A program made the position numbers and the translations under genes. Positions 25,309-43,671 of a DNA stretch of 64,000 nucleotides are shown piece by piece (positions within the stretch are counted from its first letter, which is position 1; every line of letters begins with the position of its first letter). The notes under the pieces were generated by a model. It was not told where the DNA came from and did not search any database. It worked only from the letters and a program-made list of their open reading frames with translations. Source of the DNA: Candidatus Woesearchaeota archaeon (GTDB lineage: Archaea; Nanobdellota; Nanobdellia; Woesearchaeales; GW2011-AR4); contig JACOUX010000012.1 of assembly GCA_016177615.1 (NCBI GenBank), forward strand, positions 17,104 to 81,103. The letters run 5' to 3'.

Positions 25309-25333
25309 CTTTCTTGATATTGGTATCAAAAAG

Positions 25334-25341: not shown

Positions 25342-25363
25342 CACGTGTAATAAGCAAAGCAAA

Positions 25364-27262: not shown

Positions 27263-27398
27263 GGAAAAAAACAAAGGCTGTTTTAATGTTGCTGTGGATA
27301 ATATTTTTTTACATAGCACACTATTATTTTGCCATAAAAAAATATCTCCCTATGGTAAGAAACTACATCCCATTCTTTTGGTGATAAGTCTTTTAATA

Positions 27399-27443
27399 TC
27401 GTAAATTGCGGTAATTGGTACAATAAATAGCCGCAATTTACGA
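27399..27443. repeat. Perfect 13-bp inverted repeat with a ~19-nt spacer in a convergent intergenic region
   Basis: tcgtaaattgcgg ... ccgcaatttacga. Further GCAATT(G) copies lie at ~27449-27458 and ~27478-27485. Confidence 0.75.
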
Positions 27444-27499
27444 GATAGGCAATTGCGTGTAAATATAATCAATTAACGCAATTGTCTATAATAAAGATA

Positions 27500-28492: not shown

Positions 28493-28546
28493 ATTACAAA
28501 GCCGCACATTGCAGCGCATTGTTTAAAAAGATTGTGCATAAAAACA

Positions 28547-28553
28547 TTTAAAA
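28547..28553 (+). promoter_or_regulatory. TATA-like box for the GT9 gene
   Basis: TTTAAAA centred ~28 nt upstream of the ATG at 28578. Confidence 0.4.
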
Positions 28554-28577
28554 CATGCCGATAATCTTGCTCCAAAT

Positions 28578-29585
28578 ATGGGACTGAAAATAATATTCAT
28601 AGCCCTAAACGGGATAGGCAACACTATACTTCTGACTCCAGTTTTCATAAACTTAAAGAAAAATCTGCCAGATTCGGTTATCAGCGTGCTTGCCCTGAAT
28701 GACTCTGCAGAGGTTGTAAGGAACAGCCCGTATGTCGATGAAGTTATTGTGTACCAGTCAAAAGCCTCATTTTTCAGCAGATTGCTGTTCCTGCTTCGGC
28801 TCAGGAAAAAAAGGTATGATCTTAGCTTTTATCCTTATCCAAATGTTAGCATAATGAGCGCTCTGATGGGATTTGTGATTGGGGCAAAAAAGAGGGTAAA
28901 TTTTCAGTACAGGCTTTTTGGATCATGGAGAAGATTTTTTGACACGATAAGCGTTCCTGTGGATTTCAGCAGGCATGATGTGGAAAAAAATCTCGACTTG
29001 CTTAGGGCGCTTGGCATGAAAATCCATTCCAAAAGCCTTTTCATTCCAGTAAGTGAAAGCGACAAAAAATATGCCTGCAATCTTCTTAGTGGCATGGTAA
29101 AAAAGAATGATGCCCTTATAGGAATGCACATCGGCTCCAAGGAAGGCATGAGGATATGGCCGACTGAAAATTTCGCTTCACTGGCAAAAAAGCTTTTGGC
29201 AATCAATAAACTGAAGATAGCCATTGTCGGCACTAAAATCGAGAAAGGTTTGGTTAGGAATTTCCAGGAATTCCGCCAGCCCAATATCATTAATCTTATA
29301 GGAAAAACAAGCATACCGCAGACAACTGCCCTGATTGGGAAGTGCAGGCTTTTCATCTCGACAGATTCCGGGCCAATGCACATGGCGGCTGCAGCAGGAA
29401 CCAAAGTAATCTCCATCTACCTTGGGCCGCATATAAAGAGGACAGCTCCTTTTGGAGAGCAGCATATAGTATTCCTCACAAACAAGGCCACAATGAAGTC
29501 TGATAAGAACAAGAACCATATTTACGCTGATGAAATTACGCCTGAAATGGTTTTCAGGAAGGTAAAAGAGATAGTTAGTCCGTAA
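28578..29585 (+). CDS. Glycosyltransferase family 9 (heptosyltransferase-like)
   Basis: N-terminal KIIFIALNGIGNTILLTPVFINLKK and C-terminal LIGKCRLFISTDSGPMHMAAAAGTKVISIY are typical of the RfaF/WaaC family. Confidence 0.7.
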   Translation: MGLKIIFIALNGIGNTILLTPVFINLKKNLPDSVISVLALNDSAEVVRNSPYVDEVIVYQSKASFFSRLLFLLRLRKKRYDLSFYPYPNVSIMSALMGFVIGAKKRVNFQYRLFGSWRRFFDTISVPVDFSRHDVEKNLDLLRALGMKIHSKSLFIPVSESDKKYACNLLSGMVKKNDALIGMHIGSKEGMRIWPTENFASLAKKLLAINKLKIAIVGTKIEKGLVRNFQEFRQPNIINLIGKTSIPQTTALIGKCRLFISTDSGPMHMAAAAGTKVISIYLGPHIKRTAPFGEQHIVFLTNKATMKSDKNKNHIYADEITPEMVFRKVKEIVSP

Positions 29586-30711
29586 ATGACTTGTAGAACT
29601 TTTCTGCAACCTTTTCTATTGAAAATTTCTTCAAAATGAGCCTTCTTCCATTCGCAGCCATTCTTTTTGCCTCTTCTCTTTTGCCAAGCATCCTTTTAAT
29701 GCAGCCTGCCAAATCTTCAACATCGAATCTCCTGGCTACCAGCCCTGTAACTCCGTCTTTTACTACAAAATCCAAGCCGCCGCATTCCATTGCAACAACC
29801 GGAACACCGCATGCAAGCGCTTCATTGACGGCAGGGGTGATTTCCTGAAAATTTGCAAGTACAAATACTGATGATTGGTTGTAAATCATGGCAAGCTCAT
29901 CGTGTTTTTTTGCACCCAGAAATTTCACATTGCTGCTTATGCCAAGCCTATTTGCCAATCTTTCAATTGAATTTTTATAATACCCTTCTCCGACAATCCA
30001 CAGCTCTACATCATCGCCGTTATCAATAAGGATCTTTGCAGCTTTTATTATCAGATGGTGGCCTTTCAGCTTATATAAGCCCCCTACAGACAGTATTACT
30101 GGCTTAGAACGTTTTTCCGTTTTAAGCGGCCTGAAGCATTTGGTGTCAGTCGGATGCCCGATGACAATGCTTTTCTTTGCCCCTTTGTCAAGAAGACCAA
30201 GCCTAATGTACCTTTCTTCTGCCTCTGGATTTGCAAACAGGAAATGCCTCGCGAACCTGCAGGCTTTTCTTGCAAAATGCAATGCGATTGGCTTGGTAAT
30301 CCTGAACAGGAAGAAGCCCTCGACAGTCTGCGATGTCCTGTAAATAAGCCTGGAATTGTATTTTTTCGCTGCCAAGTAAGACTGGTACGCAAACCAATAG
30401 AATTCAGGATTGCTGGATTCAATGACGTCATACCCATTTAGCTTTTCCACAAGGTCAAAATAACAAAATCTTGGAAGCCCAATCACAAACAGGATTTTTT
30501 CGATAGGTGTCTTATAGTCAAGGCTTCTTATTTTTTCAATCCTGAAATTTGCATAAGAAAGCTCGTTCTTTCTGTCGGTGAATATTGTCGCCCTTACCCC
30601 ATATTTCTTGATCAAATATTCATAAACTTTCAGCAGGTTCTGCAGAGATGAATTTATGCTGGGCTGCGTCGGGATTACGATTGCAGCATTAATGGCGCTT
30701 GGTTTTTTCAT
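29575..30711 (-). CDS. Glycosyltransferase family 4 (GT-B, group 1)
   Basis: LSVGGLYKLKGHHLIIKAA...ELWIVGEG...EITPAVNEALACGVPVVA...GVTGLV. I prefer the ATG at 30711; the track start 30723 is a TTG. Confidence 0.8.
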   Translation of the reverse strand: MKKPSAINAAIVIPTQPSINSSLQNLLKVYEYLIKKYGVRATIFTDRKNELSYANFRIEKIRSLDYKTPIEKILFVIGLPRFCYFDLVEKLNGYDVIESSNPEFYWFAYQSYLAAKKYNSRLIYRTSQTVEGFFLFRITKPIALHFARKACRFARHFLFANPEAEERYIRLGLLDKGAKKSIVIGHPTDTKCFRPLKTEKRSKPVILSVGGLYKLKGHHLIIKAAKILIDNGDDVELWIVGEGYYKNSIERLANRLGISSNVKFLGAKKHDELAMIYNQSSVFVLANFQEITPAVNEALACGVPVVAMECGGLDFVVKDGVTGLVARRFDVEDLAGCIKRMLGKREEAKRMAANGRRLILKKFSIEKVAEKFYKSFTD

Positions 30712-30731
30712 CAATTTTCTCAACAGATAAC

Positions 30732-30741
30732 TATTTAAATA
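30732..30741. promoter_or_regulatory. Palindromic TATA box shared by the divergent GT4 and wecB genes
   Basis: TATTTAAATA is its own reverse complement. Its centre is ~26 nt from the ATG at 30711 (minus) and ~26 nt from the ATG at 30763 (plus). Confidence 0.5.
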
Positions 30742-30762
30742 ACTTTTTGTTTTTCAGACGAC

Positions 30763-31869
30763 ATGCTTAAGATAGCAAGCGTTGTGGGGACACGGCCGAA
30801 TTTCATCAAGATATCGCCGCTGGTCAATGAGATAAAAAGGCACAGAGATGTAAAGCATATCCTTATCCATACCGGCCAGCATTATGACAAGCAAATGTCA
30901 AAATCCTTTTTCGATGAGCTTGGAATACCGAAGCCAGATATTAATCTTGGTGTAGGCTCTGCTCATGATGCTGTGCAGACAGCCAGGATAATCCTTGAAC
31001 TGGAGAAAGTCCTTTCAAGGGAGAAGCCCGATTTAGTTATTGTGGTGGGAGATGTGAATTCCACGTTTGCAGCAGCCATAACAGCAAAGAAGTGCGGAAT
31101 CCCTGTTGCCCATGTGGAATCCGGGTTGAGAAGCTTTGACATGGGAATGCCCGAGGAAATAAACAGGATTTTGACCGACCATATATCTGACTTCCTTTTC
31201 ACCACAGAAGAAAGCGGTAATGAAAACCTGCTGAAGGAAGGTGTAGATAAGCGCAAGATTTTTTTTGTAGGCAATGTAATGATAGATACTCTGCTGCATC
31301 ACAGAAAAAAGGCTGAAAAGTCTGCCATTTTATCAAAATTAAGGCTGAAAAAGAATGAGTATTTTGTCTTGACACTGCACAGGCCAAGCAATGTTGATGA
31401 TCAAAAATCGCTTGAGAGAACTTTGGGAATCCTGGAGCCGCTGCTGCAAAAAATAAAAATTGTTTTTCCGGTGCATCCAAGGACATTAAAAAGCCTGAAG
31501 CGCTATAACCTGTTAAGCAGGATTAGCAGCAAGAAAAATATGGTGCTGACAGGCCCACTGGGCTACCTTGATTTTCTGCACCTGATGGCAAATGCTAAGC
31601 TTGTCATCACTGATTCAGGAGGCATACAGGAAGAAACCACTGTTCTTGGCGTTCCATGCATCACATTAAGGAAAAACACAGAAAGGCCTGTAACATGTAA
31701 GCAGGGGACAAATGTGCTGGTGAGCGCAGAAAAAAATGAAGTGGTTGATGCAGCCAGCAGAATTATCAGCGGGCAGAAGCCAACAGCCAGGATCCCAAAA
31801 TTCTGGGACGGAAAGGCTGCAGGCAGGATAGTGAAAACATTATTGCAGGCTAAAGGCAGGCAGGTTTAA
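30763..31869 (+). CDS. wecB: UDP-N-acetylglucosamine 2-epimerase (non-hydrolysing)
   Basis: KIASVVGTRPNFIKISPLVNEIK...HTGQHYDKQMSKSFFDELGIP...DSGGIQEETTVLGVPCITLR. Confidence 0.88.
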   Translation: MLKIASVVGTRPNFIKISPLVNEIKRHRDVKHILIHTGQHYDKQMSKSFFDELGIPKPDINLGVGSAHDAVQTARIILELEKVLSREKPDLVIVVGDVNSTFAAAITAKKCGIPVAHVESGLRSFDMGMPEEINRILTDHISDFLFTTEESGNENLLKEGVDKRKIFFVGNVMIDTLLHHRKKAEKSAILSKLRLKKNEYFVLTLHRPSNVDDQKSLERTLGILEPLLQKIKIVFPVHPRTLKSLKRYNLLSRISSKKNMVLTGPLGYLDFLHLMANAKLVITDSGGIQEETTVLGVPCITLRKNTERPVTCKQGTNVLVSAEKNEVVDAASRIISGQKPTARIPKFWDGKAAGRIVKTLLQAKGRQV

Positions 31870-31926
31870 GTATTAGTGGTATCGATATTTGTAATTATAA
31901 TTTGTAATTAAAAAATCAAGAACCCA

Positions 31927-33339
31927 ATGTCACTGCAGAAAAAGATATTAAGGAACTTAAGCTTCGTAACTATTGGGGAAATAGTATCCAATCTACTGTC
32001 CTATTTCCTTATAATACTGATTGCAAGGAAGCTTGGCACGGAAGGGCTGGGGATTTATTCTTTTGCGTTCGCATTTGTAGGGTTGTTTGCGGTGCTTAAT
32101 GACTTCGGGCTTTCAACATTTTTTGTGCGGGAAGTCGCAAAAAAAAAAGAGGATGTTGTGAATTATTTCGGCAATTATGCTGCCATGAGGCTTATATTGT
32201 GCATATTGTCCCTGCTTCTTCCTTTGGTGATTATTCTGTTTCTAAAAAGGTCTCATGAGGTTATTGTAGTAGTTTACCTTGCGTCATTCATCTTCTTTAT
32301 GCAAACATATTCCTACGTCCCGCGGAATGCTTTTCTTGCCTTCCAGGAAATGAAATATGATTCTATTGTGAAGGTAGCAGAGCGCGTATTTGCATTTATA
32401 TTAGGAATTTATGCATTGCTTGCCGGATACGGGCTGGTTGGCTTTCTTGCAGCGCTGGCAATATCAAACCTGATTGCGCTTGCCATATCGATATTGCTGC
32501 TGAAAAAAATATCTGTTGGCTTCAGATTAAGGTTTGATTACAAATTGTGGAAAAGCATGATTTATGCTTCATGGCCATTCTGGCTCACGTGGGTATTTCT
32601 GCAGATTTATTTCCAGATTGATACTGTTATGCTCTCTTTTATTAAAGGTTACGAGGCGACAGGAATATACAATGCAGCCTATAAGCTGATATTTGTTATA
32701 GACAAGATTCCATTGGCAGTTGGCATGGTATTGTTTCCGGTCATGTCGGAGCTGCATGCAAGCTCTAAAAAGCTTTTGAAGAGAACTCTGGAGAAAGGAA
32801 TGCACCTTCTTTCAATCATAAGCTTCCCAATTGCAGCAGGAATCACAGTTATATCAAGCAGGATAATCCTGTTCATATACAAGTCCGGGTTTGAAAAGTC
32901 AACAATTACTCTCCAGATACTGATATGGACAACTATTTTCATGTTTTTCAGCTATCTCATAGGATGGTTTTTGAATGCAATCGACAAGCAAAAGGTGTTT
33001 GCATATTCAACGGGATTTTGCCTTTTAATGAACGTAATCCTAAATGCCTTGCTTATCCCAAAATTTAGTTACATTGGGGCATCCGCAGCCACGCTTGCAA
33101 CCGCAGCCCTTAACTTTGCAGTCCTCTATTATTTCACAGTGAAAGCCGGTTATTTTGACAACATTCTGAGATTTGCCATAAGGCCTGTTATCGCATCGGC
33201 ATTGATGGCGCTCTTTATTGTATTTTTTGGAGGAAGCGTCCACATTATTGCCCTAATTCCGATAGCTGCCCTGATTTACCTGCTGCTGCTTGCCTTGATG
33301 GGCGATATTAAGAGGGAAGACTTCCAGAGCATCTTCTGA
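31927..33339 (+). CDS. Polysaccharide/oligosaccharide flippase (Wzx-like, MOP superfamily)
   Basis: A 470-aa protein with ~12-14 TM helices and the usual polysaccharide-biosynthesis-protein layout. Located in a glycan cluster. Confidence 0.7.
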   Translation: MSLQKKILRNLSFVTIGEIVSNLLSYFLIILIARKLGTEGLGIYSFAFAFVGLFAVLNDFGLSTFFVREVAKKKEDVVNYFGNYAAMRLILCILSLLLPLVIILFLKRSHEVIVVVYLASFIFFMQTYSYVPRNAFLAFQEMKYDSIVKVAERVFAFILGIYALLAGYGLVGFLAALAISNLIALAISILLLKKISVGFRLRFDYKLWKSMIYASWPFWLTWVFLQIYFQIDTVMLSFIKGYEATGIYNAAYKLIFVIDKIPLAVGMVLFPVMSELHASSKKLLKRTLEKGMHLLSIISFPIAAGITVISSRIILFIYKSGFEKSTITLQILIWTTIFMFFSYLIGWFLNAIDKQKVFAYSTGFCLLMNVILNALLIPKFSYIGASAATLATAALNFAVLYYFTVKAGYFDNILRFAIRPVIASALMALFIVFFGGSVHIIALIPIAALIYLLLLALMGDIKREDFQSIF

Positions 33340-33402: not shown

Positions 33403-34605
33403 GTGAGCAATAAAAAATTTTGGGTGTCTCTGATATTTGCATTCTTTTTCCTAATTAATTATGTCTTTGCCGCGCAAATAAACAGCACTAATTATGAGCA
33501 GGTCGTCATTGTTTCTGCCGGCGGAGAAAATATCTCAAGCTCTTCTTATAACATGGGCATTGCAGCAGGAATAATAAGCAAAGTCGTGTCTTCCTCATCT
33601 TACATCAACAGGCTTGGATTTTTCAATCTGTTCCTTCTTGCAGATGGTCGGCCTTGCGCCTCAGCCAGCCAGTGCCAAGGGGGCTTTTGCTGCAGCAATC
33701 TCTGCTCAAGCTCTTCGTGCCCTGTGAGCACCACAACTAGTACTAGTGGCGGCGGAACCGGAGGGGGCGGAGGTGGTGGTGGAGGTGGTGGATCATTGCC
33801 GTCAGCAAAACCACCAATTCCTGTAAAAGAGTTTAGTGTCTCTCCAAGCTCGATAAAGGAAGAGTTGGCGCTGGGCGCTGCAAGCACAAGAACATTCAGG
33901 ATAAAGAATACCGGCAGCGAACCAATGAATTTTGATTTGGAGTTGATGGATATTGGAGGGTTTGTGGCTTTGTCTGATATAAGCTTCAGCATTGGACCAG
34001 GCGAGGAAAAAGTAGTTGAGGCTGGATTCATCGGAAAGAAGCTTGGATCCTACATCGGCAAGATTCTTGTGAGGAGTGATGAAGAGGAAAAATCCATTAT
34101 CGCTGTTGTTGACATATCATCTGACCAGGCGCTATTTGATGCAAAGCTTGACATTCCTCCTGCCTATAAGGAGGTTGAGCAGGGCGGAGAGCTTAAGGCC
34201 CAGATTACTTTGTTGAATGTGGGATCTCCAAAAAAGGTGGATGTTGCAGTAACATATCTTATTAAAGACACTCGCGGAAACGTAATCCATGAGTCTTCAG
34301 AGACATTCGCTGTGGAAAAGCAGACCTCATATGTAAAGTCTTTCAAGCTTGGTGAGAAGTTCGGGCCCGAAGACTATTTAGTCATTGCTGAAGTCAGGTA
34401 TGGAAATTTATTCGCAGTTTCCAGCGAGCTGTTCAAGATAATTCCAAAGCAAACCTCAATTAAAAAGTCACTGGGATCAAGCTCAACATTCAAATATATT
34501 TCTGCTCTGGCTCTGCTCATTGGAGTCTTATTGGTGTTGGCGCTCACGCCCCTTGACAGGTTCTTAAAAAGGATATTCAATCTAGGGGGCAAGGGCAGAA
34601 ACTGA
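33403..34605 (+). CDS. Secreted, C-terminally membrane-anchored surface protein (Cys-rich module, poly-Gly linker, two beta-sandwich-like domains)
   Basis: GTG start with GAGGCGGA upstream and a signal peptide ...NYVFA/AQ. C-x5-C-x4-CC-x3-C-x4-C module, then G15-type linker and a C-terminal TM (ALALLIGVLLVLAL). The ectodomain is paralogous to that of the next gene. Confidence 0.6.
   Translation: MSNKKFWVSLIFAFFFLINYVFAAQINSTNYEQVVIVSAGGENISSSSYNMGIAAGIISKVVSSSSYINRLGFFNLFLLADGRPCASASQCQGGFCCSNLCSSSSCPVSTTTSTSGGGTGGGGGGGGGGGSLPSAKPPIPVKEFSVSPSSIKEELALGAASTRTFRIKNTGSEPMNFDLELMDIGGFVALSDISFSIGPGEEKVVEAGFIGKKLGSYIGKILVRSDEEEKSIIAVVDISSDQALFDAKLDIPPAYKEVEQGGELKAQITLLNVGSPKKVDVAVTYLIKDTRGNVIHESSETFAVEKQTSYVKSFKLGEKFGPEDYLVIAEVRYGNLFAVSSELFKIIPKQTSIKKSLGSSSTFKYISALALLIGVLLVLALTPLDRFLKRIFNLGGKGRN
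33748..33792 (+). repeat. GGN simple repeat encoding a poly-glycine linker
   Basis: Encodes GGGTGGGGGGGGGGG. Confidence 0.9.
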
Positions 34606-34759
34606 AAAAAGAGTTGATAATTTCCGAAACCTATTTAAACATACAAATTTAGATTCTTAATCGCGTTACACTACAAAAAAAGAGGTGGATGTTATGTCTT
34701 ATGCATTCTTGCGCCATTTTTCTTGCCATGCATCTAATTCCTTTGCGGGGTGACCGGCT

Positions 34760-37700
34760 TTGGTATTTAAGAGATATATAAAAAAGCACGGCAAAAAGCT
34801 AGGGCCATACTACTACGAGAACGTCAGGGGTCATGACGGCAAAGTAAAATCTATTTATCTTGGGGTAAACCCGAATCACCATGTTAAGCATAAAGTCAGG
34901 AAGCCGTTGTTTTTTGTAATCCTAATTCTGGTATTGATCTTGATATTGGGCTCTGTTCTTTTTGTAATGCAAAATAAATCTTATCTCTTCAGTAAGGCAA
35001 GCGCACAGGAGCCGGATTTTGACATTGACCAGATCCTGCTGAAAGTGCTTGTAAGGAGCGGTGAATTCATAGATAAGCAGATAAGAATCATGAACACAGG
35101 AAATGAGCTTTCCAGCATAAAAGTCGAAGTTTCGGGCTTGTCTGATATAGTGAAGATTGATGATTCTTCCTTCTCCCTAAAACCCGGGCAGACTAAGGTT
35201 ATAAGCCTGAATTTCTCATCTTACCTGCCGCAGGACAAGATTGAGCAGCAGCCAGGAGTTTACATTGGCAAATTGATTGTTTCATCTGACAAGGCATCAA
35301 AGGAAATTCCGATAATCGCCGAGATTGAAACAAAGAACGTGCTTTTTGACATGAACTTGAATCCTGTTGCAATTGAGAGAAAGGTAAAGCAGGGCTCAGA
35401 CACAACAATTGAGGTGCGCCTTTTTAACCTGGAAAGTATAGAGTCCCAGAATGTTGATGTGGAATATTTTGTCAAAGACATCAACGGCAATACCATAGTT
35501 TCAGAAAGCGAAACTGTCGTTGTAAAAACCCAGGCATCCTTTTTCAAGACTCTTTCCATTCCAAAAAACCTGAAGCCGGGCCCATATATTTTTGCGGCAA
35601 TCACAAAATTCGGCAAATCAGTAGGGACTTCAAGCTATATGTTTGAGGTAATCGGGCCTGAGGAGAAGGGTTTCCTCCAGTTCTGCAAGAGCAGCATACT
35701 GTGCATGGGAATATCATTTACAACAATACTGCTGATGTTCGCATTGATGGCCTACCTATATTTCTTCTTTGGAGCCTATCTTTACGAAAAGTTCACTGGA
35801 GCGACAGCAAAAAAACCGAAGCCGAAAAGATTTGTGGATTATAAATTTAGGGAAGATGCAGCCGAACAAAGGGCAGGCTTCTTTAATAGGGTCCAAGACA
35901 GGATTGATCTGTGGAAAGAAAAGAGAAGGCAAAGAAGGGCTGAGAAGGACAAGCTGGAAATCAAGAAAGAATTGGAGCAGCTTAAAAGGCAAAGAAGGTT
36001 GGAGATTGAAAGGAAAAAGAGTGCATTAGAAGAGGAAAGAATAAGGCAGGAAGCATTAAGAAAGCTTGAAGAAGAGCAAAGGAAAAAGCAGCTGCAGGAT
36101 GCAAGGCTAAAGCTGCTGGAGCTTAGAAGGCAGGAAGAGCTCAGGAAAAAAGAGGAGCTGGAGAGAAAAAAAGCAGAAGAGGAAGAGGCAAAGCAGGAGC
36201 TTGAGGAGAAAAAGCTCAGGGAGATCGAGGAAAAACAAAAAGAGGAAGAAAAAAGGCAGAAGCGCCAGAAAAGAAAAAAGAAAATCAAAGACTTTTTGCG
36301 CAGGATTAGCCTTTACAAGGCTCCTGAAGAAAAAAAGCAGGCAGCATTGCAGAAAGAGAAAGAAAGGCTGGAAAGCCTGAAGAGGGAAAATGAGCTGCAG
36401 AGGCAAAGAAAGGCTGGACGAATTAAAATTGCCTTGAAGAAGTCAAAAAATCTCGATAAATTCCAATCCATATTAAGCGAAGCAAAAAAAGCTGTAGAAA
36501 CAGAAAATATTTCAAGGCTAGACAGGATTTATTTGAAGGCAAGCGAGCTCTATACGGCTTTGGATAACCGGGAAAAACAGTCGGTTTATGCTGACTTGAT
36601 GAAGCTATACGAGCAAAGAAACAGGCTTGCTAGGCAGCAGAAGATTGAGGAAGAGCTTCAAAAGAAAGAAGATGTGAAAAATAGAAAGGATGAAGAGGAA
36701 AGAAAAAAGCAGGAAGAAAGGTTGAAGAAGCAGGAAAAGCTTGAGAGAGCAAAGTTATGGAAAAAAAGGCGGGGAAAAGCCAAGGCATTCTTGCACAGGT
36801 TTGGCCTGTATAAGACTCCTGAAGAAAAAAAGCAGGCAGCATTGCAGAAAGAGAAAGAAAGGCTGGAAAGCCTGAAGAGGGAAAATGAGCTGCAGAGGCA
36901 AAAAGAGGCTGAGGAGAAAAGAAAGAAGGAAGAGGAGAGAAAAGAGCTAAAGGATGAAAAAGAAAGCAAGAAAAGGGAAGCAAGAAAACTGGAAGAGCAG
37001 AAAAAGCTGGCTTTGGAGGAGGAAAAGGGAAAGAGGGATGATATTGAAAGGGAGAAAAAGCAGAGAGAGCGAGAGGAGAAGCAAAAGGAATCACAAAGGC
37101 TGGCTGAAGAAAAGGCAAAAGCCATGCAGCTCGAGATTTCCAAGGAGATTGGGTCAAGGCTGGAAAAGAATAGGGCAGATAAAGAAATCCTTAGAAAAAA
37201 GCTGGAGGGGATTGAGGCTGACGAAAAATTATACGGCAGCAAATTTGGAGAGATTGAAGACAGGCTTGAAGGGATAGAACACGATATTATAACAAAGTCA
37301 AAAGCTCACAGCGACCTGAAGCTGCAGAAAAGCTCTTTGCTTGAAAAGCGCAATGCGCAAATTAAAGAATTTGAAAACAGGCTCAAAGAGGAAAAAAAGG
37401 CAATAAGCGCAAAAATCAAACAGGCAAAGGAAATGCTGGCCGAGAAAGAAATTGGTTTGATGAAAAAAGCCGAGGAGGAACTGGAAAAACTGGGCCCTGA
37501 AAAAAGGAAAACCTCGGAAAAATGGAAAAGGATGGAGGTCAGGGCAAAAATAAAGCTGGAAGAGCAGGCCTTGAAAGACGAGCTGAAGGTTGATGAGGGA
37601 AAAGAAGAGGACGAAACCAAAAAGTCAGAGGGTGAATACAAAAAAGCCGTCAAGGAACTGAACAGCAGGTTAAGCGGATTAAGGCAGGAGCTTGAAGAGC

Positions 37701-38080
37701 TAAAGAGCCGGAAAGAGCACTTGCTTGTTGAAAAGAAGCATTTGCCGGATATGCATTCCAGTATGGAAAGAAATGCTAAAAATATAAAAAATGAGATTTT
37801 AGCGCTTGATGCAGAGCATGAAAAGCTTGAATCAGAGCTGAAAAAATCCAAGCCAGCAACATTTGGGCTCTTTACCAAATTCAGGAAGCTAAAAAGCGGC
37901 AAAAGCATAGACAAATTCCGCGCAGCGCTTGAGGGAGCGCTTGAAGCGATAAAGAAGAATGACGTGCAAAAAGCAAAACAACTTTACATGGAAGCAAGAA
38001 ATATTTATGTTGATATGGAATATGATGAAAAGAAGGAAGTTTACAGCGACCTTATGGAGGTTTATAACAAGCTGCTGTGA
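34760..38080 (+). CDS. Giant bitopic membrane protein: N-terminal basic motif, TM1, two beta-sandwich-like ectodomains, TM2, ~750-aa K/E/R-rich coiled coil
   Basis: TTG start, forced by an in-frame TGA at 34751, with a GGGGTGA SD-like element 7 nt upstream. TM helices at aa ~50-70 and ~312-342. Contains internal repeats. I cannot name a family. Confidence 0.6.
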   Translation: MVFKRYIKKHGKKLGPYYYENVRGHDGKVKSIYLGVNPNHHVKHKVRKPLFFVILILVLILILGSVLFVMQNKSYLFSKASAQEPDFDIDQILLKVLVRSGEFIDKQIRIMNTGNELSSIKVEVSGLSDIVKIDDSSFSLKPGQTKVISLNFSSYLPQDKIEQQPGVYIGKLIVSSDKASKEIPIIAEIETKNVLFDMNLNPVAIERKVKQGSDTTIEVRLFNLESIESQNVDVEYFVKDINGNTIVSESETVVVKTQASFFKTLSIPKNLKPGPYIFAAITKFGKSVGTSSYMFEVIGPEEKGFLQFCKSSILCMGISFTTILLMFALMAYLYFFFGAYLYEKFTGATAKKPKPKRFVDYKFREDAAEQRAGFFNRVQDRIDLWKEKRRQRRAEKDKLEIKKELEQLKRQRRLEIERKKSALEEERIRQEALRKLEEEQRKKQLQDARLKLLELRRQEELRKKEELERKKAEEEEAKQELEEKKLREIEEKQKEEEKRQKRQKRKKKIKDFLRRISLYKAPEEKKQAALQKEKERLESLKRENELQRQRKAGRIKIALKKSKNLDKFQSILSEAKKAVETENISRLDRIYLKASELYTALDNREKQSVYADLMKLYEQRNRLARQQKIEEELQKKEDVKNRKDEEERKKQEERLKKQEKLERAKLWKKRRGKAKAFLHRFGLYKTPEEKKQAALQKEKERLESLKRENELQRQKEAEEKRKKEEERKELKDEKESKKREARKLEEQKKLALEEEKGKRDDIEREKKQREREEKQKESQRLAEEKAKAMQLEISKEIGSRLEKNRADKEILRKKLEGIEADEKLYGSKFGEIEDRLEGIEHDIITKSKAHSDLKLQKSSLLEKRNAQIKEFENRLKEEKKAISAKIKQAKEMLAEKEIGLMKKAEEELEKLGPEKRKTSEKWKRMEVRAKIKLEEQALKDELKVDEGKEEDETKKSEGEYKKAVKELNSRLSGLRQELEELKSRKEHLLVEKKHLPDMHSSMERNAKNIKNEILALDAEHEKLESELKKSKPATFGLFTKFRKLKSGKSIDKFRAALEGALEAIKKNDVQKAKQLYMEARNIYVDMEYDEKKEVYSDLMEVYNKLL
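36321..36407 (+). repeat. 87-bp perfect intragenic direct repeat, copy 1
   Basis: Identical to 36816-36902 at a 495-bp (165-codon, in-frame) offset. Encodes PEEKKQAALQKEKERLESLKRENELQRQ. Confidence 0.9.
36816..36902 (+). repeat. 87-bp perfect intragenic direct repeat, copy 2
   Basis: See copy 1. Confidence 0.9.
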
Positions 38081-38299
38081 TTACCTTAATGTATCCTCAA
38101 TAGGCCTTTTTGCATTGGCTTTTTGCGATTCTTTCTGAAGGTCAACTCCCAGGTCCTGCAGGCTCTTGATGTGCATTTGCATAAGCTGCTCTACAATTGA
38201 AAGTATCTTTAGCATCTCTTCCCTTTCCTTTGCAAGCGTTGTCAATGCGCCTTTGTGAAACCCGACCTGCTCGTCCTTGCTTATCTTGTCTTTTGGCAT
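38081..38299 (-). CDS. Small helical hypothetical protein
   Basis: A 72-75 aa heptad-like sequence. ATG at 38299 (MPKDK) lies ~27 nt from a TATATAAA box. Confidence 0.4.
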   Translation of the reverse strand: MPKDKISKDEQVGFHKGALTTLAKEREEMLKILSIVEQLMQMHIKSLQDLGVDLQKESQKANAKRPIEDTLR

Positions 38300-38322
38300 T
38301 GTGCGCAAAAAAAATGCATCAG

Positions 38323-38343
38323 TATATAAACATTTTTAAAATA
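38323..38343. promoter_or_regulatory. Back-to-back TATA-like boxes for divergent genes
   Basis: TATATAAA lies ~27 nt from the minus-strand ATG at 38299. TTTTAAAATA lies ~24 nt from the plus-strand ATG at 38362. Confidence 0.4.
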
Positions 38344-38361
38344 GGGCATTGTCAGCAGCTT

Positions 38362-39267
38362 ATGACGCAGGTATTAGGAATTGTAAAAGAAGGCAAGCTG
38401 ATTCCGGAAGAACTATGGATGAAGCTGATAAGCGGTATTGAAAATGAATTTGACTCGCTTGAGACAAACAATGAGCGGGCAAAGAGGGAGCTTGCAGAGG
38501 CAATAGTCCAAGCGATTAAAAAAAGAATTGTTCCAAAATTCGGCATTCTTTTTTCAGGAGGAGTGGACAGCGCCCTTATAGCATTTGTCGCAAAGCAGCT
38601 TAAGTGCAACTTCACCTGCTATACAGTCGGCATAGGGGGGTCTGACGATATTGCATGGGCGCAGAAAGCCGCGAATGAGTACGGATTTAATTTCAAATTC
38701 AGGATATTAAGCCTTCCTGAGCTAGAGAATGCCGTGAAAGAGGTTGTGAAAATATTGAATGATCCTGATATTATAAAAGTCAGCGTCGGGTCTGTCCTTT
38801 ATGTTGCCGGAAAGATGGCGCTTGCAGACGGGAATAATATAGTGTTCGGCGGCATTGGAAGCGAGGAGATATTTGCAGGATACCAAAGGCACGAGGAAGC
38901 GCTTGGAAAGAATAATTTTGAGGCGCTGCACAGGGAATGCTGGAATGGCCTGAAGAAAATGTGGGCAAGGGACTTGGCAAGGGACTTTGCGATTGCCAAA
39001 AAGCTAGGGCTTGACTTGAGAACTCCTTTTCTTGACAAAGATGTTATAAAGGTTGCAATGAATATCCATCCTATGTACAAACTTGATAAGGAAAATAAGA
39101 AGATAATTTTAAGGGAATCTGCCGAGCTTATAGGGCTGAAGAAGGAATTCGTATGGAGAAAAAAGCAGGCCGCGCAGTACGGGAGCAATTTTGTGAACGG
39201 GATTGAAAAGCTGGCAAAGCAGAACGGATTCAAGTACAAGAAGGATTATTTGCAGAGCTTGATTTGA
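38362..39267 (+). CDS. PP-loop ATP pyrophosphatase, asparagine-synthetase-B C-terminal-domain-like (no glutaminase domain)
   Basis: PP-loop FGILFSGGVDSALIAFVAKQL. I prefer the start at 38362 because an A/T box lies ~24 nt upstream. The track start 38197 overlaps the divergent gene. Confidence 0.7.
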   Translation: MTQVLGIVKEGKLIPEELWMKLISGIENEFDSLETNNERAKRELAEAIVQAIKKRIVPKFGILFSGGVDSALIAFVAKQLKCNFTCYTVGIGGSDDIAWAQKAANEYGFNFKFRILSLPELENAVKEVVKILNDPDIIKVSVGSVLYVAGKMALADGNNIVFGGIGSEEIFAGYQRHEEALGKNNFEALHRECWNGLKKMWARDLARDFAIAKKLGLDLRTPFLDKDVIKVAMNIHPMYKLDKENKKIILRESAELIGLKKEFVWRKKQAAQYGSNFVNGIEKLAKQNGFKYKKDYLQSLI

Positions 39268-39328
39268 AAAATGAATTTATTTTTAAATTTTGAATTTTAT
39301 TGAAAAAATTGAATTGATGGAATAAAAA

Positions 39329-39748
39329 ATGCAATACACCTTCCATGCATACGGCCATCCTGACATTCTCGGGACCCATAAAACAACACTGGAGTTCACG
39401 AAAGAAAAAGAGGTTACCCTGAATGGGAACTGCATCATCGGAGTTTGTGCAGATTTTGATTTTGATAAGCTGACGGAATTTATTAAAAAGGCCAGATCCA
39501 CAAAGATAACAATAAATGTCCATACAAGAGATAAAAAAATAAAAGAAATGATAAATGCAGAATTGAATCTGGATTTCAGCCATAACGAAGAGATTGTAAT
39601 AAGAAAGACTAATTTTATTTCTCAGAGGACTTTAGCAATAAAAGCAAACAAGGCTGCATTTGATTTAAACAGGCAGTTAATTGAGTTTTTAAAAGAAAAA
39701 CAGAATGTGATAGGTGTTGTAATGGTTTCTGAACGCCAATTTGAATGA
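39329..39748 (+). CDS. Conserved archaeal hypothetical protein (DUF371-like)
   Basis: A ~139-aa protein with HGHPDILGTHKTTLEFTKEKEVTLNGNCIIGV, which resembles my recollection of the DUF371 family. Confidence 0.5.
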   Translation: MQYTFHAYGHPDILGTHKTTLEFTKEKEVTLNGNCIIGVCADFDFDKLTEFIKKARSTKITINVHTRDKKIKEMINAELNLDFSHNEEIVIRKTNFISQRTLAIKANKAAFDLNRQLIEFLKEKQNVIGVVMVSERQFE

Positions 39749-39814
39749 TTGAACTTGATTAAAGCAACAGAGTCTCTGGCTTTTTATTCGGTCACGAGCT
39801 TTCGAGACGCATAG

Positions 39815-39824
39815 TTTTTTAAAT
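39815..39824 (+). promoter_or_regulatory. Candidate TATA-like box for the 39936-44312 cassette (would give a ~90-nt leader)
   Basis: TTTTTTAAAT follows a T-run after the DUF371 stop. Two strong SD-like elements lie downstream. Confidence 0.3.
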
Positions 39825-39935
39825 GAAGACCTCGTATATGGTCCGTTGGGTACTGGTCTGTTCTGTACAAAAAAGGAGGTGAAACTTATAGATTTGAGCC
39901 TGCATATGTAAGGCTTTAGGAGGAACGTAAAGGTC

Positions 39936-41369
39936 ATGGAGTTATTCGGATTTAGAAGCAGTTTGCCGCAGGATTATGAAGAGAAAGCTGCTCTTGGGAT
40001 TGTTGTTGAAAATGGAATTATTTCTAGGAATACGCCACAGCCGTCCCATATAGCAAAAGTATTAGGAGAGCCTGCTGTCGATTCATATTACTTTATGCAT
40101 GCCTTGTTTCATGCCTTGGAAGGCGGGTTTGGAAGAAACAGGGGCTTTTTTGACTACGCCAGAAGGGACCACATAGCCATACAAAAGCACTCATTCAGCG
40201 CAGCGTTCAAGCCATATTACAGGCTTAACCGTAAACCATTTCCATCAAGGTATGTGCTTACAACAAGAGGGGTTGTAGGCAATCTGATACATGATATTCC
40301 AGAAGAGCACGGCCAAACACCTATTGGAGCTCTGATAGACATAGCCATAATACGGTATCTGCTTGGGGATACTGCCGGGACTGACGCAGATTTGCATACA
40401 AAGCATGGAATTTTAATTGTGGATTCAATAGAAGATAGGCTCAAGGAATTCAGCCCAATCAATCACGAAAATGTCTCTAAGCTTTTGGATACACAGCGGG
40501 GTAAAGTAGATGTTAAGCAAGGTAGCGTCCGTTATCATTACAATCAAGTATTGGGTTCGTTGCTTAAGTTTAAGGATTACGTTGAATTGAATGTAAATCC
40601 CAAAACTGAAGGCGTGCCGTCTCCGCAAAGCATGCCGCCTCAGGAAAAAAAACTGTTAATGGATATCATAATGAAATTATACAGCGGCGTGAATATGCAA
40701 ATGAAAGCCCGAGAATTGCCGGATGCCGCAAGTTTGAAATGCACTTTAACTAAAAATTATGATGAGATATTAGATTTGATGGCAAGACATGACTACATAC
40801 CTGTTGATGAAAGCCTTCTCTTGAAAAGGGATCCGGTGTTTTTATTGACGCTTAAAAAAACGCTTTATTACGCTTCATTAAGAAAAATGGCGAAAAAGGC
40901 CATGGAAGACGCGAAGCTTGCATTAGCAGGATGCCAGGTCATCGAGGATTCTTACGATTCTACAATGGTACAGTCTATTTCAGAATCCATCGGAACTATC
41001 GCTACCATGGATGTCAATAATCTCCATCATGCAACAAGCATTTACAGAAAGGCAAGAGGAAAAATAAATGTTGGCATCGAATTAGTTAAGGAGTTAAGCG
41101 GGCTAGGGGTGCCATATGAAACATTGAGGCTTGCTGTTGACTATGAGTACAGGACTCTAGAAGACAGGATAAAAAGCAGCATTAGTACATTCAGGAGAGA
41201 TGCTAAAGGAGAAACTGATTGGAACATTTATCTTAATGCTTTTTCCTTAATGAGCAAGAAACTGAAAAAGATGAGGTCTGATGTAAAACGGATGAAACAT
41301 CTTAGCACTGGGGGGCCATCACGAAAAAGAGTTCGTGGAATAATCACAAGAATGTCACAATTCCTATGA
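39936..41369 (+). CDS. Hypothetical protein; the N-terminal ~180 aa carry SpoT/Rel-hydrolase (HD)-like motifs, the rest is helical and unknown
   Basis: ATG preceded by AGGAGG. Motifs are H79/H85 ... LIHDIPEEHG (117-126) ... IEDRLKEF (165-172), colinear with H...HDxxED...ADRxHN of RSH hydrolase domains. Confidence 0.55.
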   Translation: MELFGFRSSLPQDYEEKAALGIVVENGIISRNTPQPSHIAKVLGEPAVDSYYFMHALFHALEGGFGRNRGFFDYARRDHIAIQKHSFSAAFKPYYRLNRKPFPSRYVLTTRGVVGNLIHDIPEEHGQTPIGALIDIAIIRYLLGDTAGTDADLHTKHGILIVDSIEDRLKEFSPINHENVSKLLDTQRGKVDVKQGSVRYHYNQVLGSLLKFKDYVELNVNPKTEGVPSPQSMPPQEKKLLMDIIMKLYSGVNMQMKARELPDAASLKCTLTKNYDEILDLMARHDYIPVDESLLLKRDPVFLLTLKKTLYYASLRKMAKKAMEDAKLALAGCQVIEDSYDSTMVQSISESIGTIATMDVNNLHHATSIYRKARGKINVGIELVKELSGLGVPYETLRLAVDYEYRTLEDRIKSSISTFRRDAKGETDWNIYLNAFSLMSKKLKKMRSDVKRMKHLSTGGPSRKRVRGIITRMSQFL

Positions 41370-41388
41370 TTTGAGGAGCTTTAAAAAA

Positions 41389-43671
41389 ATGCTAGCGCCA
41401 TTTGCTTTGATCAGCGAGGATGCACAAAACTATCTTATTAGCTTCCATGTAGTAAGGGAAGCATTTAGAAGAGGGGAGCTTCCGCCTCAAGAGTTAATGG
41501 ATTTTCTTTATGAATGGAGAGAAGCAGGACTCCTTTCAGAAGCCTATGCAGAGGAAGCCAGGCACAGCGAAAAGAATCTTGAAAGGATAATACAGCTTGC
41601 CGTCAGCGCGGTGAGCCGTGATACAAAATCCAGGACTAAGAAAACTGTTTTGACTGCTGACGGTGAAAAAGAAGCTGATTCGTACGAGCATGGTCATACT
41701 TCAAACATATATTATATCTTAAAGAGGATAAAGGAAGAAGCTGATTTTTGGCTTAAATCCATCGCAACGATAAACGACCAGTCAGAAACGGGCGCATTTG
41801 ACCAGAAGGGCTTCAGAATAATTGTTGAAAGCCCTAAAGCAAGGGAGTTCCGGTCCAGGAGGGGCTTTGAAGATTTAAGCAAAGAAGAAAAAGAAAGGTT
41901 CAAAGCCTTATTTCATGGATTAAAATTCTCCGAGCTTTCATCTCATGAAAAGGAAAAATTTTACAAAGCTTTTACAGTTGAGTACATGGGCCTGACAGAT
42001 GGTGAAAAGAGAAAATACAAAGCCAATTTCCAGGAATCACACAGAAAAATGTGTTTGGATCTTGCTAGCAGGATTGCAAGAGCCAGAATGTACGACACTA
42101 TACCCATAAACCCGCATTACATGAGACTGGACAATCTTGAAATGAGAGTCCAAAGGCAGGTTATTGGTGATCCCAACGGAAAAATGCTTCTTGAATTTGA
42201 ATACTTATTGAACAGGGGTAAAGGCAGCGATATCGGGTTTTATGAAACTCTGCTCCATCTGCTCCAAAAAGCTTCCCAGCAGGTACTAAGCAAAAACGGG
42301 AGAACTGCAGAATATATTGATCTCGCAGGAAGAAAAGCATATCTTGTAAATCTTGGAAATCTTGTAGTAAATTTTCATTTTTACGAAAGCTCTGATTCAT
42401 TTTCAGGCTTGGATATAGAAAACTTATCAGAAATCATTGATAAACGCTACAGAACCGCATTGAAAAGATTTTCTGATAAAGATATGGGGAAAAGAGAAAC
42501 CAGAATAATGGAGTATACAAGAATTGGCATGGAGAATATTCCATTGGGGCTTTTTATTTTTCCTGAAACAACAACAACTGATCTTATGAGCAAGTATCCT
42601 GACATGAAATTTGACGAATCGCATACCTTCGATACTTTCATCAAAGATCGAATTGGGCCAAATGCCGAGTCAAATGGGTATGAAAATCTGAAGCTTTTCC
42701 TGTCTTTTAACTCAACTACAAAAGAGATAAGCGGGGAGTGCCAGATAAGAGACACGATAATGGATTATGATGCCGAATTTGGAGTGGCATCCAAGTTCAG
42801 GACAGTGGAAGGCCACATATCCGAAAAGATACGAAGGTCAAAAAGAGGCGTTGCGGTTATTAGCGATAAGGATATTGAATTTGGCAATGCTTTTTTTCTC
42901 TCTGGGGAAGAAAACAATCAAATGTTTTCCCGAATTTATTCTGATTTCTACGCGAGATCTATTTTGGAGATTGCAGAAGAGATTGCAAAAATAGAGGTTA
43001 TAACAAAAGAGCAAAAGAAATTTAAAGATTTGTTTGAAAGAATCATATGTTTATACGCCGAGGCCAAAGACCGGGTAAACCCAAATGATTTTGAGTTAGT
43101 ATCTTCGTCCATAAACTCAGTTTTTGTTAAATATGTAAGGGAGCGTGGCATTGGCATACTTTCTTACCATGACAGCCTTTGGGAGATCAATGAAAAATTC
43201 AGGAAAGTTGCAGATCTTGGCGCTAAGCTTAATGTTTTTGCTGCCATAACAGATTTGGACGAGGTTATGCACAGAAGGCATATCGACATGCTGTATAATT
43301 CTTTCATTCAGATGTCCGCAAGTGCGAGCGAGCACAATGCCGTTACCTCGCTTGCTTTGGAAACACTGATTATGAATTATAATAAACGTTATGGAAATCA
43401 TGTTCCTACAAGCGTGCAAAACGCATATAGGCAAAGGATGCAGGAATTTTTCGAATCGGCAGGATGGAGGCTTTTGAAATTTGGAGGCAAGAATGTGGGG
43501 CATTTGCCACATAAACTTCATAAAAATATGAGCCCTCAGAAGACCAGGCAATTGATTTCTGAAGGCGGAATTGATGTCTCAGCAGAGAGCCCTTTGATGC
43601 AGTTTGATGCTGAGACTATTGGAAATATGGAGAGGATATATCGGATATTCCAAGGATACTTGAAGAAGTAA
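41389..43671 (+). CDS. Hypothetical large protein with a divergent RelA/SpoT-type (RSH) nucleotide pyrophosphokinase-like core split by a ~285-aa insertion
   Basis: ATG at 41389 with GAGGAG ~9 nt upstream; the track start is a TTG at 41371. Four colinear RSH synthetase motifs, described in the findings. Confidence 0.6.
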   Translation: MLAPFALISEDAQNYLISFHVVREAFRRGELPPQELMDFLYEWREAGLLSEAYAEEARHSEKNLERIIQLAVSAVSRDTKSRTKKTVLTADGEKEADSYEHGHTSNIYYILKRIKEEADFWLKSIATINDQSETGAFDQKGFRIIVESPKAREFRSRRGFEDLSKEEKERFKALFHGLKFSELSSHEKEKFYKAFTVEYMGLTDGEKRKYKANFQESHRKMCLDLASRIARARMYDTIPINPHYMRLDNLEMRVQRQVIGDPNGKMLLEFEYLLNRGKGSDIGFYETLLHLLQKASQQVLSKNGRTAEYIDLAGRKAYLVNLGNLVVNFHFYESSDSFSGLDIENLSEIIDKRYRTALKRFSDKDMGKRETRIMEYTRIGMENIPLGLFIFPETTTTDLMSKYPDMKFDESHTFDTFIKDRIGPNAESNGYENLKLFLSFNSTTKEISGECQIRDTIMDYDAEFGVASKFRTVEGHISEKIRRSKRGVAVISDKDIEFGNAFFLSGEENNQMFSRIYSDFYARSILEIAEEIAKIEVITKEQKKFKDLFERIICLYAEAKDRVNPNDFELVSSSINSVFVKYVRERGIGILSYHDSLWEINEKFRKVADLGAKLNVFAAITDLDEVMHRRHIDMLYNSFIQMSASASEHNAVTSLALETLIMNYNKRYGNHVPTSVQNAYRQRMQEFFESAGWRLLKFGGKNVGHLPHKLHKNMSPQKTRQLISEGGIDVSAESPLMQFDAETIGNMERIYRIFQGYLKK

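Follow-up and report, generated by a model that had tools for sequence, protein, structure and literature searches.

TolA of the Gram-negative Tol-Pal system tethers two layers of the cell to each other, and tethers that are anchored in the membrane and carry a domain for interaction at the far end of a long helical spacer are already familiar. Woesearchaeota and their DPANN relatives have not been cultured, and next to nothing is known of how their envelope is organised. Here we describe a gene from such an archaeon that encodes a 1106-residue protein in which a conserved, putatively extracellular pair of domains is joined through the membrane to a very long charged tail. The gene occupies positions 34760-38080 of the forward strand of a 64,000-nucleotide stretch of Candidatus Woesearchaeota DNA (the window: contig JACOUX010000012.1 of assembly GCA_016177615.1, positions 17,104 to 81,103). 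The open reading frame (ORF), which begins with a TTG codon in the ORF listing of the window, is confirmed as real by that listing and by the identity (100%) of its product to GenBank MBI1935171.1, annotated as 'hypothetical protein' and derived from a 97-kb contig of a Candidatus Woesearchaeota metagenome-assembled genome (MAG). An earlier reading made from the DNA letters by themselves (the sequence-only reading) had supposed a DPANN source, which this origin bears out, and had been unable to assign the protein to any named family. That statement stands, as scans of the whole protein against Pfam and NCBIfam, and searches of the sequences of the PDB, returned nothing at threshold. The family is not described in the searchable literature, and all database names for it are 'hypothetical protein'.

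The anatomy listed in the sequence-only reading, namely a basic N-terminus, two transmembrane (TM) segments enclosing two beta-rich domains, and a charged tail in which two types of module, X and Y, each occur twice, was upheld. Both TM segments are evident from hydropathy and as helices in an AlphaFold2 model that covers residues 1-400, was built with 36 homologues as input and has a mean predicted local distance difference test score (pLDDT) of 82. The protein is predicted to form a hairpin with both ends inside the cell (in-out-in), the Ig-like domains being outside and the N-terminus and the tail of ~760 residues being cytoplasmic. The net charge of the 15 residues flanking each TM segment is +4 before and 0 after TM1, and -1 before and +6 after TM2, a positive-inside distribution. 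A paralogue encoded upstream bears the same ectodomain behind a Sec-type signal peptide and before a C-terminal TM anchor, which argues for its position outside the cell, while the occurrence of module Y in proteins that have no TM segment argues that Y is cytoplasmic. The opposite arrangement, with the tail outside the cell, had been named in the earlier reading as grounds for refutation; the charge distribution, the signal peptide of the paralogue and the Y-bearing proteins that have no TM segment speak against it and for a tail inside, as that reading had proposed. Two distant members of the family, P0045 (locus L005) and P0048 (locus L004), have extra TM segments after TM2 and the in-out-in topology is therefore not family-wide.

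The beta-rich regions proved to be two beta-sandwiches, both modelled with high confidence. The tandem sandwiches gave Foldseek matches at E 2e-11 to 1e-9 with a probability of 1.00, which are matches of fold class only. The pair superposes as a unit on V. cholerae RbmA (Foldseek E 4e-11, template-modelling score (TM-score) on the target 0.53-0.57). Further matches were to the ASH/PapD-like domains of ciliary proteins and CEP192, to the C-terminal Ig domains of transglutaminases and to WxLIP, and sandwich 1 has sub-threshold Pfam matches to Cep192_D3, HYDIN_VesB and ASH. From the models, these resemblances are read as those of generic Ig/FnIII-type surface or interaction modules. The N-terminal 345 residues are the best-conserved part of the protein, with 23 invariant columns in 37 sequences, and the ectodomain is 65-75% identical between species. 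Two invariant cysteines at the outer edge of TM2 are the only cysteines of the 1106-residue protein. At its extreme N-terminus the protein is modelled as a three-stranded beta-meander (residues 2-33; strands 2-9, 12-23 and 29-33) with a motif of 11 invariant columns among 13 orthologues. The window sequence of this motif has no DUF1678 or DUF6788 match in Pfam; below threshold, DUF1678 is matched by eight of the 13 orthologous N-termini (best E 0.006) and DUF6788 by four (best E 0.017), and homologue P0047 carries a precomputed match to PF20586. Nothing meaningful was found when the motif was compared with PDB sequences.

The tail, which is rich in lysine (20%), glutamate (19%), leucine (11%) and arginine (10%), had been described in the sequence-only reading as almost pure heptad-like sequence forming a coiled coil of ~750 residues. 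Here heptad character was measured by an in-house script, rather than a dedicated coiled-coil predictor, that scores hydrophobic periodicity at the a and d positions against residue shuffles. Only one segment of the tail was significant, residues 780-1040, at a z of 5.3. Periodicity was absent from residues 374-505 (z 0.4 (0.37)), 619-676 (z -1.6) and 696-779 (z 0.8 (0.77)), so that the description as almost pure heptad sequence does not hold. Of the proposed coiled coil there thus remains a coiled-coil-like domain at residues 780-1040, while the rest of the tail consists of ER/K segments, X motifs and globular Y modules. The three segments lacking a heptad signal are 64-73% charged and 13-24% hydrophobic and have dense opposite-charge pairs at i/i+4 spacing, with an in-house salt-bridge score of up to 0.63 per residue in residues 437-471 and 619-760. 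All three show the sequence features of a single alpha-helix, namely more than ~60-70% E/K/R, i/i+4 pairing and few hydrophobic residues, and the combination of high charge, paired charges and missing heptads is the signature of an ER/K single alpha-helix and not of a coiled coil. In total ~270 residues of the tail have this look of ER/K single alpha-helices. In order, the tail runs through a basic linker predicted to be disordered, ER/K segment 1, X1, Y1, ER/K segment 2, X2, ER/K segment 3, the heptad domain, a patch of sequence FGLFTKF and Y2. Among orthologues the ER/K segments differ widely in length and cannot be aligned. The heptad domain (residues ~783-1018; 793-1106 in P0193) is 31-40% identical, at E 3e-9 to 1e-36, in the long or closer orthologues and is present in 11 loci of the GTDB scan described below.

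Module Y does occur twice, mid-protein and at the C-terminus, as had been claimed, and both copies are recognised with high significance by a hidden Markov model (HMM) of the family. An AlphaFold2 model of Y2, made from 46 aligned modules, is a three-helix bundle with a pLDDT of 90 and helices at model positions 10-29, 33-48 and 52-69; the sequence signature of the module comprises three conserved tyrosines and EKKE[IV]Y. The Y2 copies of orthologues are 44% identical, as against 32% between Y1 and Y2 within one protein, which shows the duplication of Y to be old, with both copies retained. Relatives of Y were found by exhaustive profile search, a word-indexed search with the Y alignment having returned none. 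Among 1.84 billion representative proteins there were 700 matches at E <= 1e-3, including 181 at E <= 1e-10. The architectures among the top matches are those of the present family (700-1670 residues), small proteins of ~190 residues with two TM segments and a Y, soluble proteins of ~340 residues with three tandem Y modules after a shared N-terminal domain, and proteins of 720-850 residues with four Y modules. At locus L003 (7503-9822) the neighbour of the orthologue is a 710-residue surface protein with an unrelated ectodomain, in which a distal TM segment and a Y follow shortly after the annotated stop in a different reading frame, apparently through a frameshift. The presence of Y on this protein indicates that the module caps different surface proteins.

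Y is not in Pfam, where only scattered sub-threshold matches to TPR, FliS and RapH_N were seen. In a Foldseek comparison of Y2 with the PDB the first matches were MIT domains (VPS4A/B, SKD1, MITD1), at E values of 0.4-2 that are not significant, and the MIT domain of S. solfataricus CdvC (2v6y), at rank 15, gave a TM-score of 0.74 and a root-mean-square deviation (rmsd) of 1.8 A. Scores against Y2 are much the same for ribosomal protein S20, TPR proteins and designed three-helix bundles as for MIT domains. None of the 46 Y modules matches Pfam MIT (PF04212). A reference alignment of MIT domains (Vps4/CdvC), checked against the PDB (E down to 5e-38), paired with Y in hhalign at a probability of 29.7% and over helices 1-2 only. 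Membership of Y in the MIT family is therefore unsupported by sequence, given the lack of a Pfam match and the low hhalign probability. A reading of Y as a TPR repeat was likewise set aside, as sub-threshold matches were confined to 1-3 of the 46 modules and a three-helix unit of ~60 residues differs from the 34-residue repeat. Against PDB sequences the Y profile gave weak matches to SRP68, FKBP-TPR and STI1 (E >= 0.02), and a single Y module gave one match to EzrA at E 0.018, which is noise. In view of the insignificant fold E values and the weak hhalign result we describe the fold of Y as 'MIT/TPR-like' without assigning the module to the MIT family.

Module X was also found twice, as had been claimed, the copies forming a 136-nt direct repeat of 90% identity with X motifs at residues 512 and 677. 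Across the family the consensus is F[FL]Hx[IL]GL[YV]KTxEEK. Copies of X are 69% identical within one protein as against 41% between proteins, which suggests recent duplication or gene conversion. No match to X was found among PDB sequences. Patches of the tail that are both hydrophobic and basic are nearly confined to X1, X2 and the positions just before Y1 and before Y2, with one extra patch at the end of Y1. X was considered as an amphipathic membrane-targeting helix of the MinD or SepF kind; the hydrophobic moment is 0.61 for X1 and 0.16 for the canonical X2, and the conserved His, Gly and Thr are a misfit, so that judged on its residues this would be a minor possibility. The helix that follows X resembles, by eye and in the window copy, an MIM1-like motif (RLxxLKR), and this candidate was dropped as it is not conserved in the orthologues compared.

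A search with residues 1-385 recovered 54 homologues, many of them cut by contig ends, all from DPANN MAGs and, where names are given, from Woese-, Pace- or Nanoarchaeota. The source MAGs are of groundwater origin. When each GTDB species was represented by one genome and scanned by pattern and tblastn, 56 loci emerged, and the titles of nearly all of them read Candidatus Woesearchaeota, Nanoarchaeota or Nanoarchaeia. The title 'uncultured Methanosarcinales', borne by some co-assembly MAGs, is treated with caution, since the sequences in question share 50-75% identity with the remaining loci. A target-type gene is present in 50 loci and is uncut in 41. The uncut orthologues have a median length of 1029 residues and a maximum ORF of 1389 residues; 30 of the 41 have Y at the C-terminus and 21 have two Y modules. 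These lengths and endings mark the window protein as a typical member of the family and not an outlier. Across the loci each protein has 1-4 X motifs and 1-3 Y modules, and the minimal member, P0028 (438 residues), retains a C-terminal Y. The sequence-only reading had raised the possibility of a coil wholly without conservation, as in a lineage-specific expansion; X, Y and the heptad domain are all kept in orthologues. In the closest syntenic orthologue, P0009 (locus L006), an in-frame TAG at 7741-7743 splits the gene into parts of 581 and 558 residues, which when read through give a protein of ~1140 residues ending in Y2; the TAG could be a sequencing error, a pseudogene mutation or a recoding event. 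The distant homologues P0049, P0051 and P0052 have the same ectodomain, lack Y and end in a different C-terminal module of EW(K/R)AKGYDTKVLEEKL repeats.

The gene is accompanied by a tandem paralogue that begins with the Sec signal peptide and continues with a six-cysteine motif (C85-C106), a linker of 13 glycines, the two-domain ectodomain at residues ~134-350 and the C-terminal TM anchor. Directly upstream of the target gene, 40 of 50 loci have a paralogue that shares the ectodomain and runs in the same direction, 42 loci being assessable. In 12 loci this paralogue ends in a Y of its own, and in some lineages it exceeds 1700 residues, with the same ectodomain at its end. Some homologues of the paralogue carry precomputed matches to PF22544 or PF22073, while those of the window copy itself are sub-threshold. 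Downstream is a conserved block (window 38081-41369) composed of a gene for ~75 residues on the reverse strand, a truncated AsnS-like gene, a DUF371 gene and a gene of 477 residues (~470 residues). The AsnS-like product resembles asparagine synthase and has no glutaminase domain; its gene is divergently paired with that for ~75 residues, and the pair inverts as a unit between loci, always lying between the target gene and DUF371. The AsnS-like and DUF371 genes are found in most loci, and loci L001-L003 have a DRG-type GTPase. As these downstream genes switch strand relative to the target, they do not form one operon with it.

Table. Coordinates in the window of the protein-coding features, modules and leader elements of the locus.
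Feature	Coordinates	Strand	Evidence or remark
Tandem upstream paralogue	33403..34605	+	31% identity over 222 aa, E 2e-30, to the target ectodomain
23-nt 5' leader/Shine-Dalgarno element GTTACACTACAAAAAAAGAGGTG	34665..34687	+	same 23 nt upstream of the L006 and L007 orthologues
Shine-Dalgarno (SD)-like GGGGTGA (34747-53), 6-nt spacer and TTG start	34747..34762	+	sequence, orthologue comparison
Basic N-terminal beta-meander (aa 1-35), predicted cytoplasmic, KRYxxKxGKxxGPYYYxNxRxxxGKVKxxYLG	34760..34864	+	AlphaFold, orthologue alignment
TM1 (aa 47-71)	34898..34972	+	hydropathy aa ~49-72; AlphaFold helix 47-71
Beta-sandwich 1 (aa 87-190), ASH/PapD/HYDIN-VesB-like, predicted extracellular	35018..35329	+	pLDDT >90; Foldseek
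Beta-sandwich 2 (aa 196-298), Ig/FnIII-like, predicted extracellular	35345..35653	+	pLDDT >90
Cys pair C309/C315, outer edge of TM2	35684..35704	+	invariant in 37 sequences
TM2 (aa 313-343)	35696..35788	+	hydropathy aa ~311-343; AlphaFold helix 313-349
Basic juxtamembrane linker (aa 344-373), predicted disordered	35789..35878	+	pLDDT <50 at aa 348-373
ER/K segment 1 (aa 374-505), hyper-charged helix	35879..36274	+	64% charged; AlphaFold helix from aa 374
Motif X copy 1 (aa 508-552), degenerate, FLRRISLYKAPEEK	36281..36416	+	direct repeat
Module Y1 (aa 560-622), three-helix	36437..36625	+	family HMM domain E 3e-25; kept in orthologues
ER/K segment 2 and basic run (aa 623-672)	36626..36775	+	66-71% charged; z -1.6 (aa 619-676)
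Motif X copy 2 (aa 673-717), canonical, FLHRFGLYKTPEEK	36776..36911	+	direct repeat
ER/K segment 3 (aa 718-779)	36912..37096	+	73% charged, 13% hydrophobic
Heptad-bearing coiled-coil-like domain (aa 780-1040), ends in X-like FGLFTKF	37097..37879	+	z 5.3
Module Y2 (aa 1042-1106), C-terminal three-helix, MIT/TPR-like fold	37883..38077	+	family HMM domain E 2e-27

The fixed ends of the protein (the ectodomain and Y2), its charged middle of variable length and the re-use of Y on surface proteins point to a tether or scaffold running from envelope to cytoplasm rather than to an enzyme or a classical signalling receptor. We favour this reading tentatively and put it at somewhat below an even chance. 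In such a tether the two paralogous ectodomains would associate on the cell surface, where, like their fold relative RbmA, they may have glycan or surface-layer material as a ligand. The tail would act as an extended spacer, stretchable in the course of evolution, that places X and Y tens of nanometres from TM2; at 0.15 nm per residue the ~270 ER/K residues would span ~40 nm and the 260 heptad residues up to ~38 nm if fully extended. X and Y would then draw in partners in the cytoplasm or cross-link them, and these might include X and Y themselves or soluble multi-Y proteins such as P0070 and P0089, the outcome being a mechanical link from the envelope to the cell interior. Several points weigh against this proposal, every functional step of which is inferred. 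Tail length ranges among orthologues from ~95 residues (P0028) to more than 1000, and such variability argues against a function that needs a defined reach. The ER/K single-helix call rests on an in-house composition and salt-bridge score, the synteny with the AsnS-like and DUF371 genes may reflect a gene order conserved within one archaeal order, and a surface-glycan biosynthesis cluster that lies upstream in the window is not conserved at the other loci examined. The variable length, together with ER/K segments that cannot be aligned between orthologues, the recent internal duplication of 136 nt and the extreme purine bias of the coding strand, would also be expected if the tail were mostly a non-functional low-complexity expansion, generated by slippage in purine-rich codons, and only the N-terminal ~345 residues mattered. 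The conservation of X, Y1, Y2 and the heptad domain in both sequence and order, the confident fold of Y (pLDDT 90), the terminal Y kept even by the shortest member and the persistence of long tails across ~40 species (median gene 1029 residues) make such an expansion most improbable.

Rival readings give the protein a more particular end. The DNA comes from a DPANN archaeon, adhesins and matrix proteins typically have Ig-like domains in tandem, RbmA and WxLIP are among the top fold matches and the six-cysteine module of the paralogue, on its poly-glycine linker, could be a distal binding head; ectodomain and paralogue might thus bind a host, with the tail anchoring the contact site from within. 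We consider this apparatus for host attachment or cell-cell contact unlikely, since no other part of the protein is as well conserved as the ectodomain whereas determinants of host specificity usually diversify, since the searches made detected only a single target-type gene on each contig, always in the same conserved block of mostly housekeeping genes, and since no adhesin family was matched in Pfam and NCBIfam scans. The best-conserved ectodomain and the conserved neighbourhood lead us instead to lean towards a core envelope organiser over a host-specific adhesin, and the gene is best explained as encoding a core envelope protein, specific to its lineage, of DPANN archaea of the Woesearchaeota type. 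Such an organiser might take the form of a sub-membrane skeleton, in which tails lying along the inner face of the membrane are cross-linked by putative X-Y or Y-Y contacts and by soluble multi-Y proteins into a lattice that organises Y-tagged surface proteins. The multivalency of the family (1-4 X, 1-3 Y), the Y modules on other surface proteins and in tandem sets of three or four on soluble ones, the greater likeness of X copies within a protein (69% as against 41% between) and the near confinement of hydrophobic-plus-basic patches to X1, X2 and the approaches to Y1 and Y2 are all consistent with a lattice, while X2 has a low hydrophobic moment and offers no clear amphipathic membrane-binding helix. 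As a separate explanation this skeleton is quite improbable, and it is largely a sharper version of the tether. Wider still, and to be held with a comparable degree of doubt, is the idea that Y defines a previously undescribed, DPANN-specific cytoplasmic adaptor system, with a common MIT-like three-helix 'plug' on the tails of many surface proteins. In that system the soluble proteins with three or four tandem Y modules and the conserved X would be the ligands or partners of the plug, and plug and partners would jointly form a sub-membrane skeleton to position the surface machinery of ultrasmall archaea, which are not known to have cytoskeletal organisers; the ER/K helices would be length-tunable struts. 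If on the other hand Y were a genuine MIT domain, able to bind the MIM-like helices of ESCRT-III superfamily proteins, it might link the surface complex to division or membrane repair through remodelling of the ESCRT-III/PspA type. MIT domains do head the Foldseek matches of Y2, with CdvC 2v6y lower down, and hhalign pairs helices 1-2 of Y with helices 1-2 of MIT; the fold E values of 0.4-2, the hhalign probability of 30% and the failure of all 46 modules to match Pfam MIT tell against it. A passage in PMC8970359 states that three of the four archaeal superphyla have species with Cdv proteins and then describes Euryarchaeota and Asgard; we read DPANN as the superphylum without Cdv, a point on which the passage is not explicit. 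In addition, no ESCRT-III or Vps4 protein was noticed among that part of the window ORFs which was scanned or among the Pfam labels of loci L001-L007, and we judge the link to ESCRT-III very unlikely.

The TTG start codon is credible because an SD-like GGGGTGA lies 6 nt 5' of it and because the same position is used in orthologous loci, TTG being found at the equivalent codon in the window, L006 and L007 (the three loci compared). In L007 the GTTACACTACAAAAAAAGAGGTG leader lies 8 nt 5' of the TTG; an insert of ~60 nt separates the two in the window and in L006. The insert of the window is a 19-codon upstream ORF, in frame with the main ORF, that runs from an ATG at 34694 to a TGA at 34751-53; as its stop lies within the SD-like GGGGTGA of the main ORF, translational coupling of the two is possible. 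The ATG at 34694 was rejected as the true start since the in-frame TGA intervenes and orthologues keep the TTG position. Over 36-38 kb the purine bias of the coding strand is extreme (GC skew 0.37, AT skew 0.51), and a purine-rich coding strand gives rise to long spurious antisense ORFs rich in S, F and L. Those at 36630-37157, 36658-37242 and 37306-37914 on the reverse strand are such low-complexity mirrors and were not accepted as genes. Rfam and tRNA scans of the window returned nothing.

The surface-glycan cluster mentioned above lies at 20932-33339 and encodes an amine oxidase, a 726-residue fused 4,6-dehydratase/DegT aminotransferase, a PMT-like glycosyltransferase, an epimerase, GT9 and GT4 enzymes, a UDP-GlcNAc 2-epimerase and a Wzx-like flippase, the last two being co-directional with the paralogue and the target. 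A functional link between cluster and target was considered and set aside, as the cluster is not found beside the orthologues in the other loci examined. Beyond the conserved downstream block, a 766-residue protein encoded at 41371-43671 on the forward strand has only a sub-threshold match resembling a RelA/SpoT nucleotidyltransferase (E 1.4e-4, residues 424-477). An intein, with its splicing domain at residues 281-733 and a LAGLIDADG homing-endonuclease domain at residues 506-590, interrupts the acetyl-CoA synthetase (AMP-binding enzyme) encoded on the reverse strand at 56390-59728.

The locus yields a conserved two-gene surface module in ~50 species-level genomes, and Y (in ~700 protein clusters) and X mark surface proteins that have one common cytoplasmic end-module. 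The profiles of Y and X, and the candidate interaction pairs, provide handles on how surface and interior may be coupled in tiny cells. The finding is descriptive: its anatomy and distribution are solid, its function is inferred. If the ER/K assignment holds, this would be a clear example, in a prokaryote, of a membrane protein with single-helix spacers.

Among known systems, TolA resembles the window protein in its membrane anchor, very long charged single-helical stalk and small globular end domain. The stalk of TolA is periplasmic and rich in Ala, Lys and Glu, whereas the tail described here is predicted to be cytoplasmic and is of the ER/K type, and TolA lacks the Ig-like ectodomain and second TM segment that the window protein has. 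No Tol family was found in Pfam or NCBIfam scans of the window protein, and there is no sequence similarity to TolA. EzrA, MapZ and RodZ, bitopic scaffolds of division or cell shape whose cytoplasmic parts are long and helical, offer a likeness of plan, a membrane-anchored link from an outer domain to cytoplasmic machinery, with no sequence or fold relationship. The three ER/K segments resemble, in composition, the single alpha-helix (SAH) domains of myosin VI/X and caldesmon in their charge, their pairing and their lack of heptads; SAH domains have been described mainly from cytoskeletal proteins of eukaryotes, whereas these segments alternate with folded modules and belong to a membrane protein of an archaeon. 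MIT domains (Vps4/CdvC, MITD1, USP8) resemble the modelled Y as an antiparallel three-helix bundle of ~60 residues (TM-score 0.6-0.74, rmsd 1.8-2.7 A, at E values that are not significant) and have in common with it, in helices 1-2, a TPR-like pattern N/DxxxAxxxYxxA. MIT is N-terminal to an AAA ATPase, whereas Y is C-terminal on membrane proteins or in tandem arrays. For the ectodomain, the closest two-domain match is RbmA, a biofilm matrix scaffold of tandem FnIII domains that is secreted and soluble, has no TM segment or tail and is 13-16% identical; the modelled resemblance may reflect the generic tandem Ig/FnIII arrangement only. The ASH/PapD-like Ig domains of HYDIN, CFAP65 and CEP192 SPD-2 match sandwich 1 in Foldseek at E 1e-9 to 1e-10, and the sub-threshold matches of target and paralogue to HYDIN_VesB_CFA65-like_Ig and Cep192_D3/D4 denote a fold class, that of an Ig-like surface or interaction domain, and nothing more specific. 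Set beside these systems, what is new here is the Y domain, the X motif, the paired arrangement of the paralogues and the presence in an archaeal membrane protein of spacers that resemble ER/K single helices.

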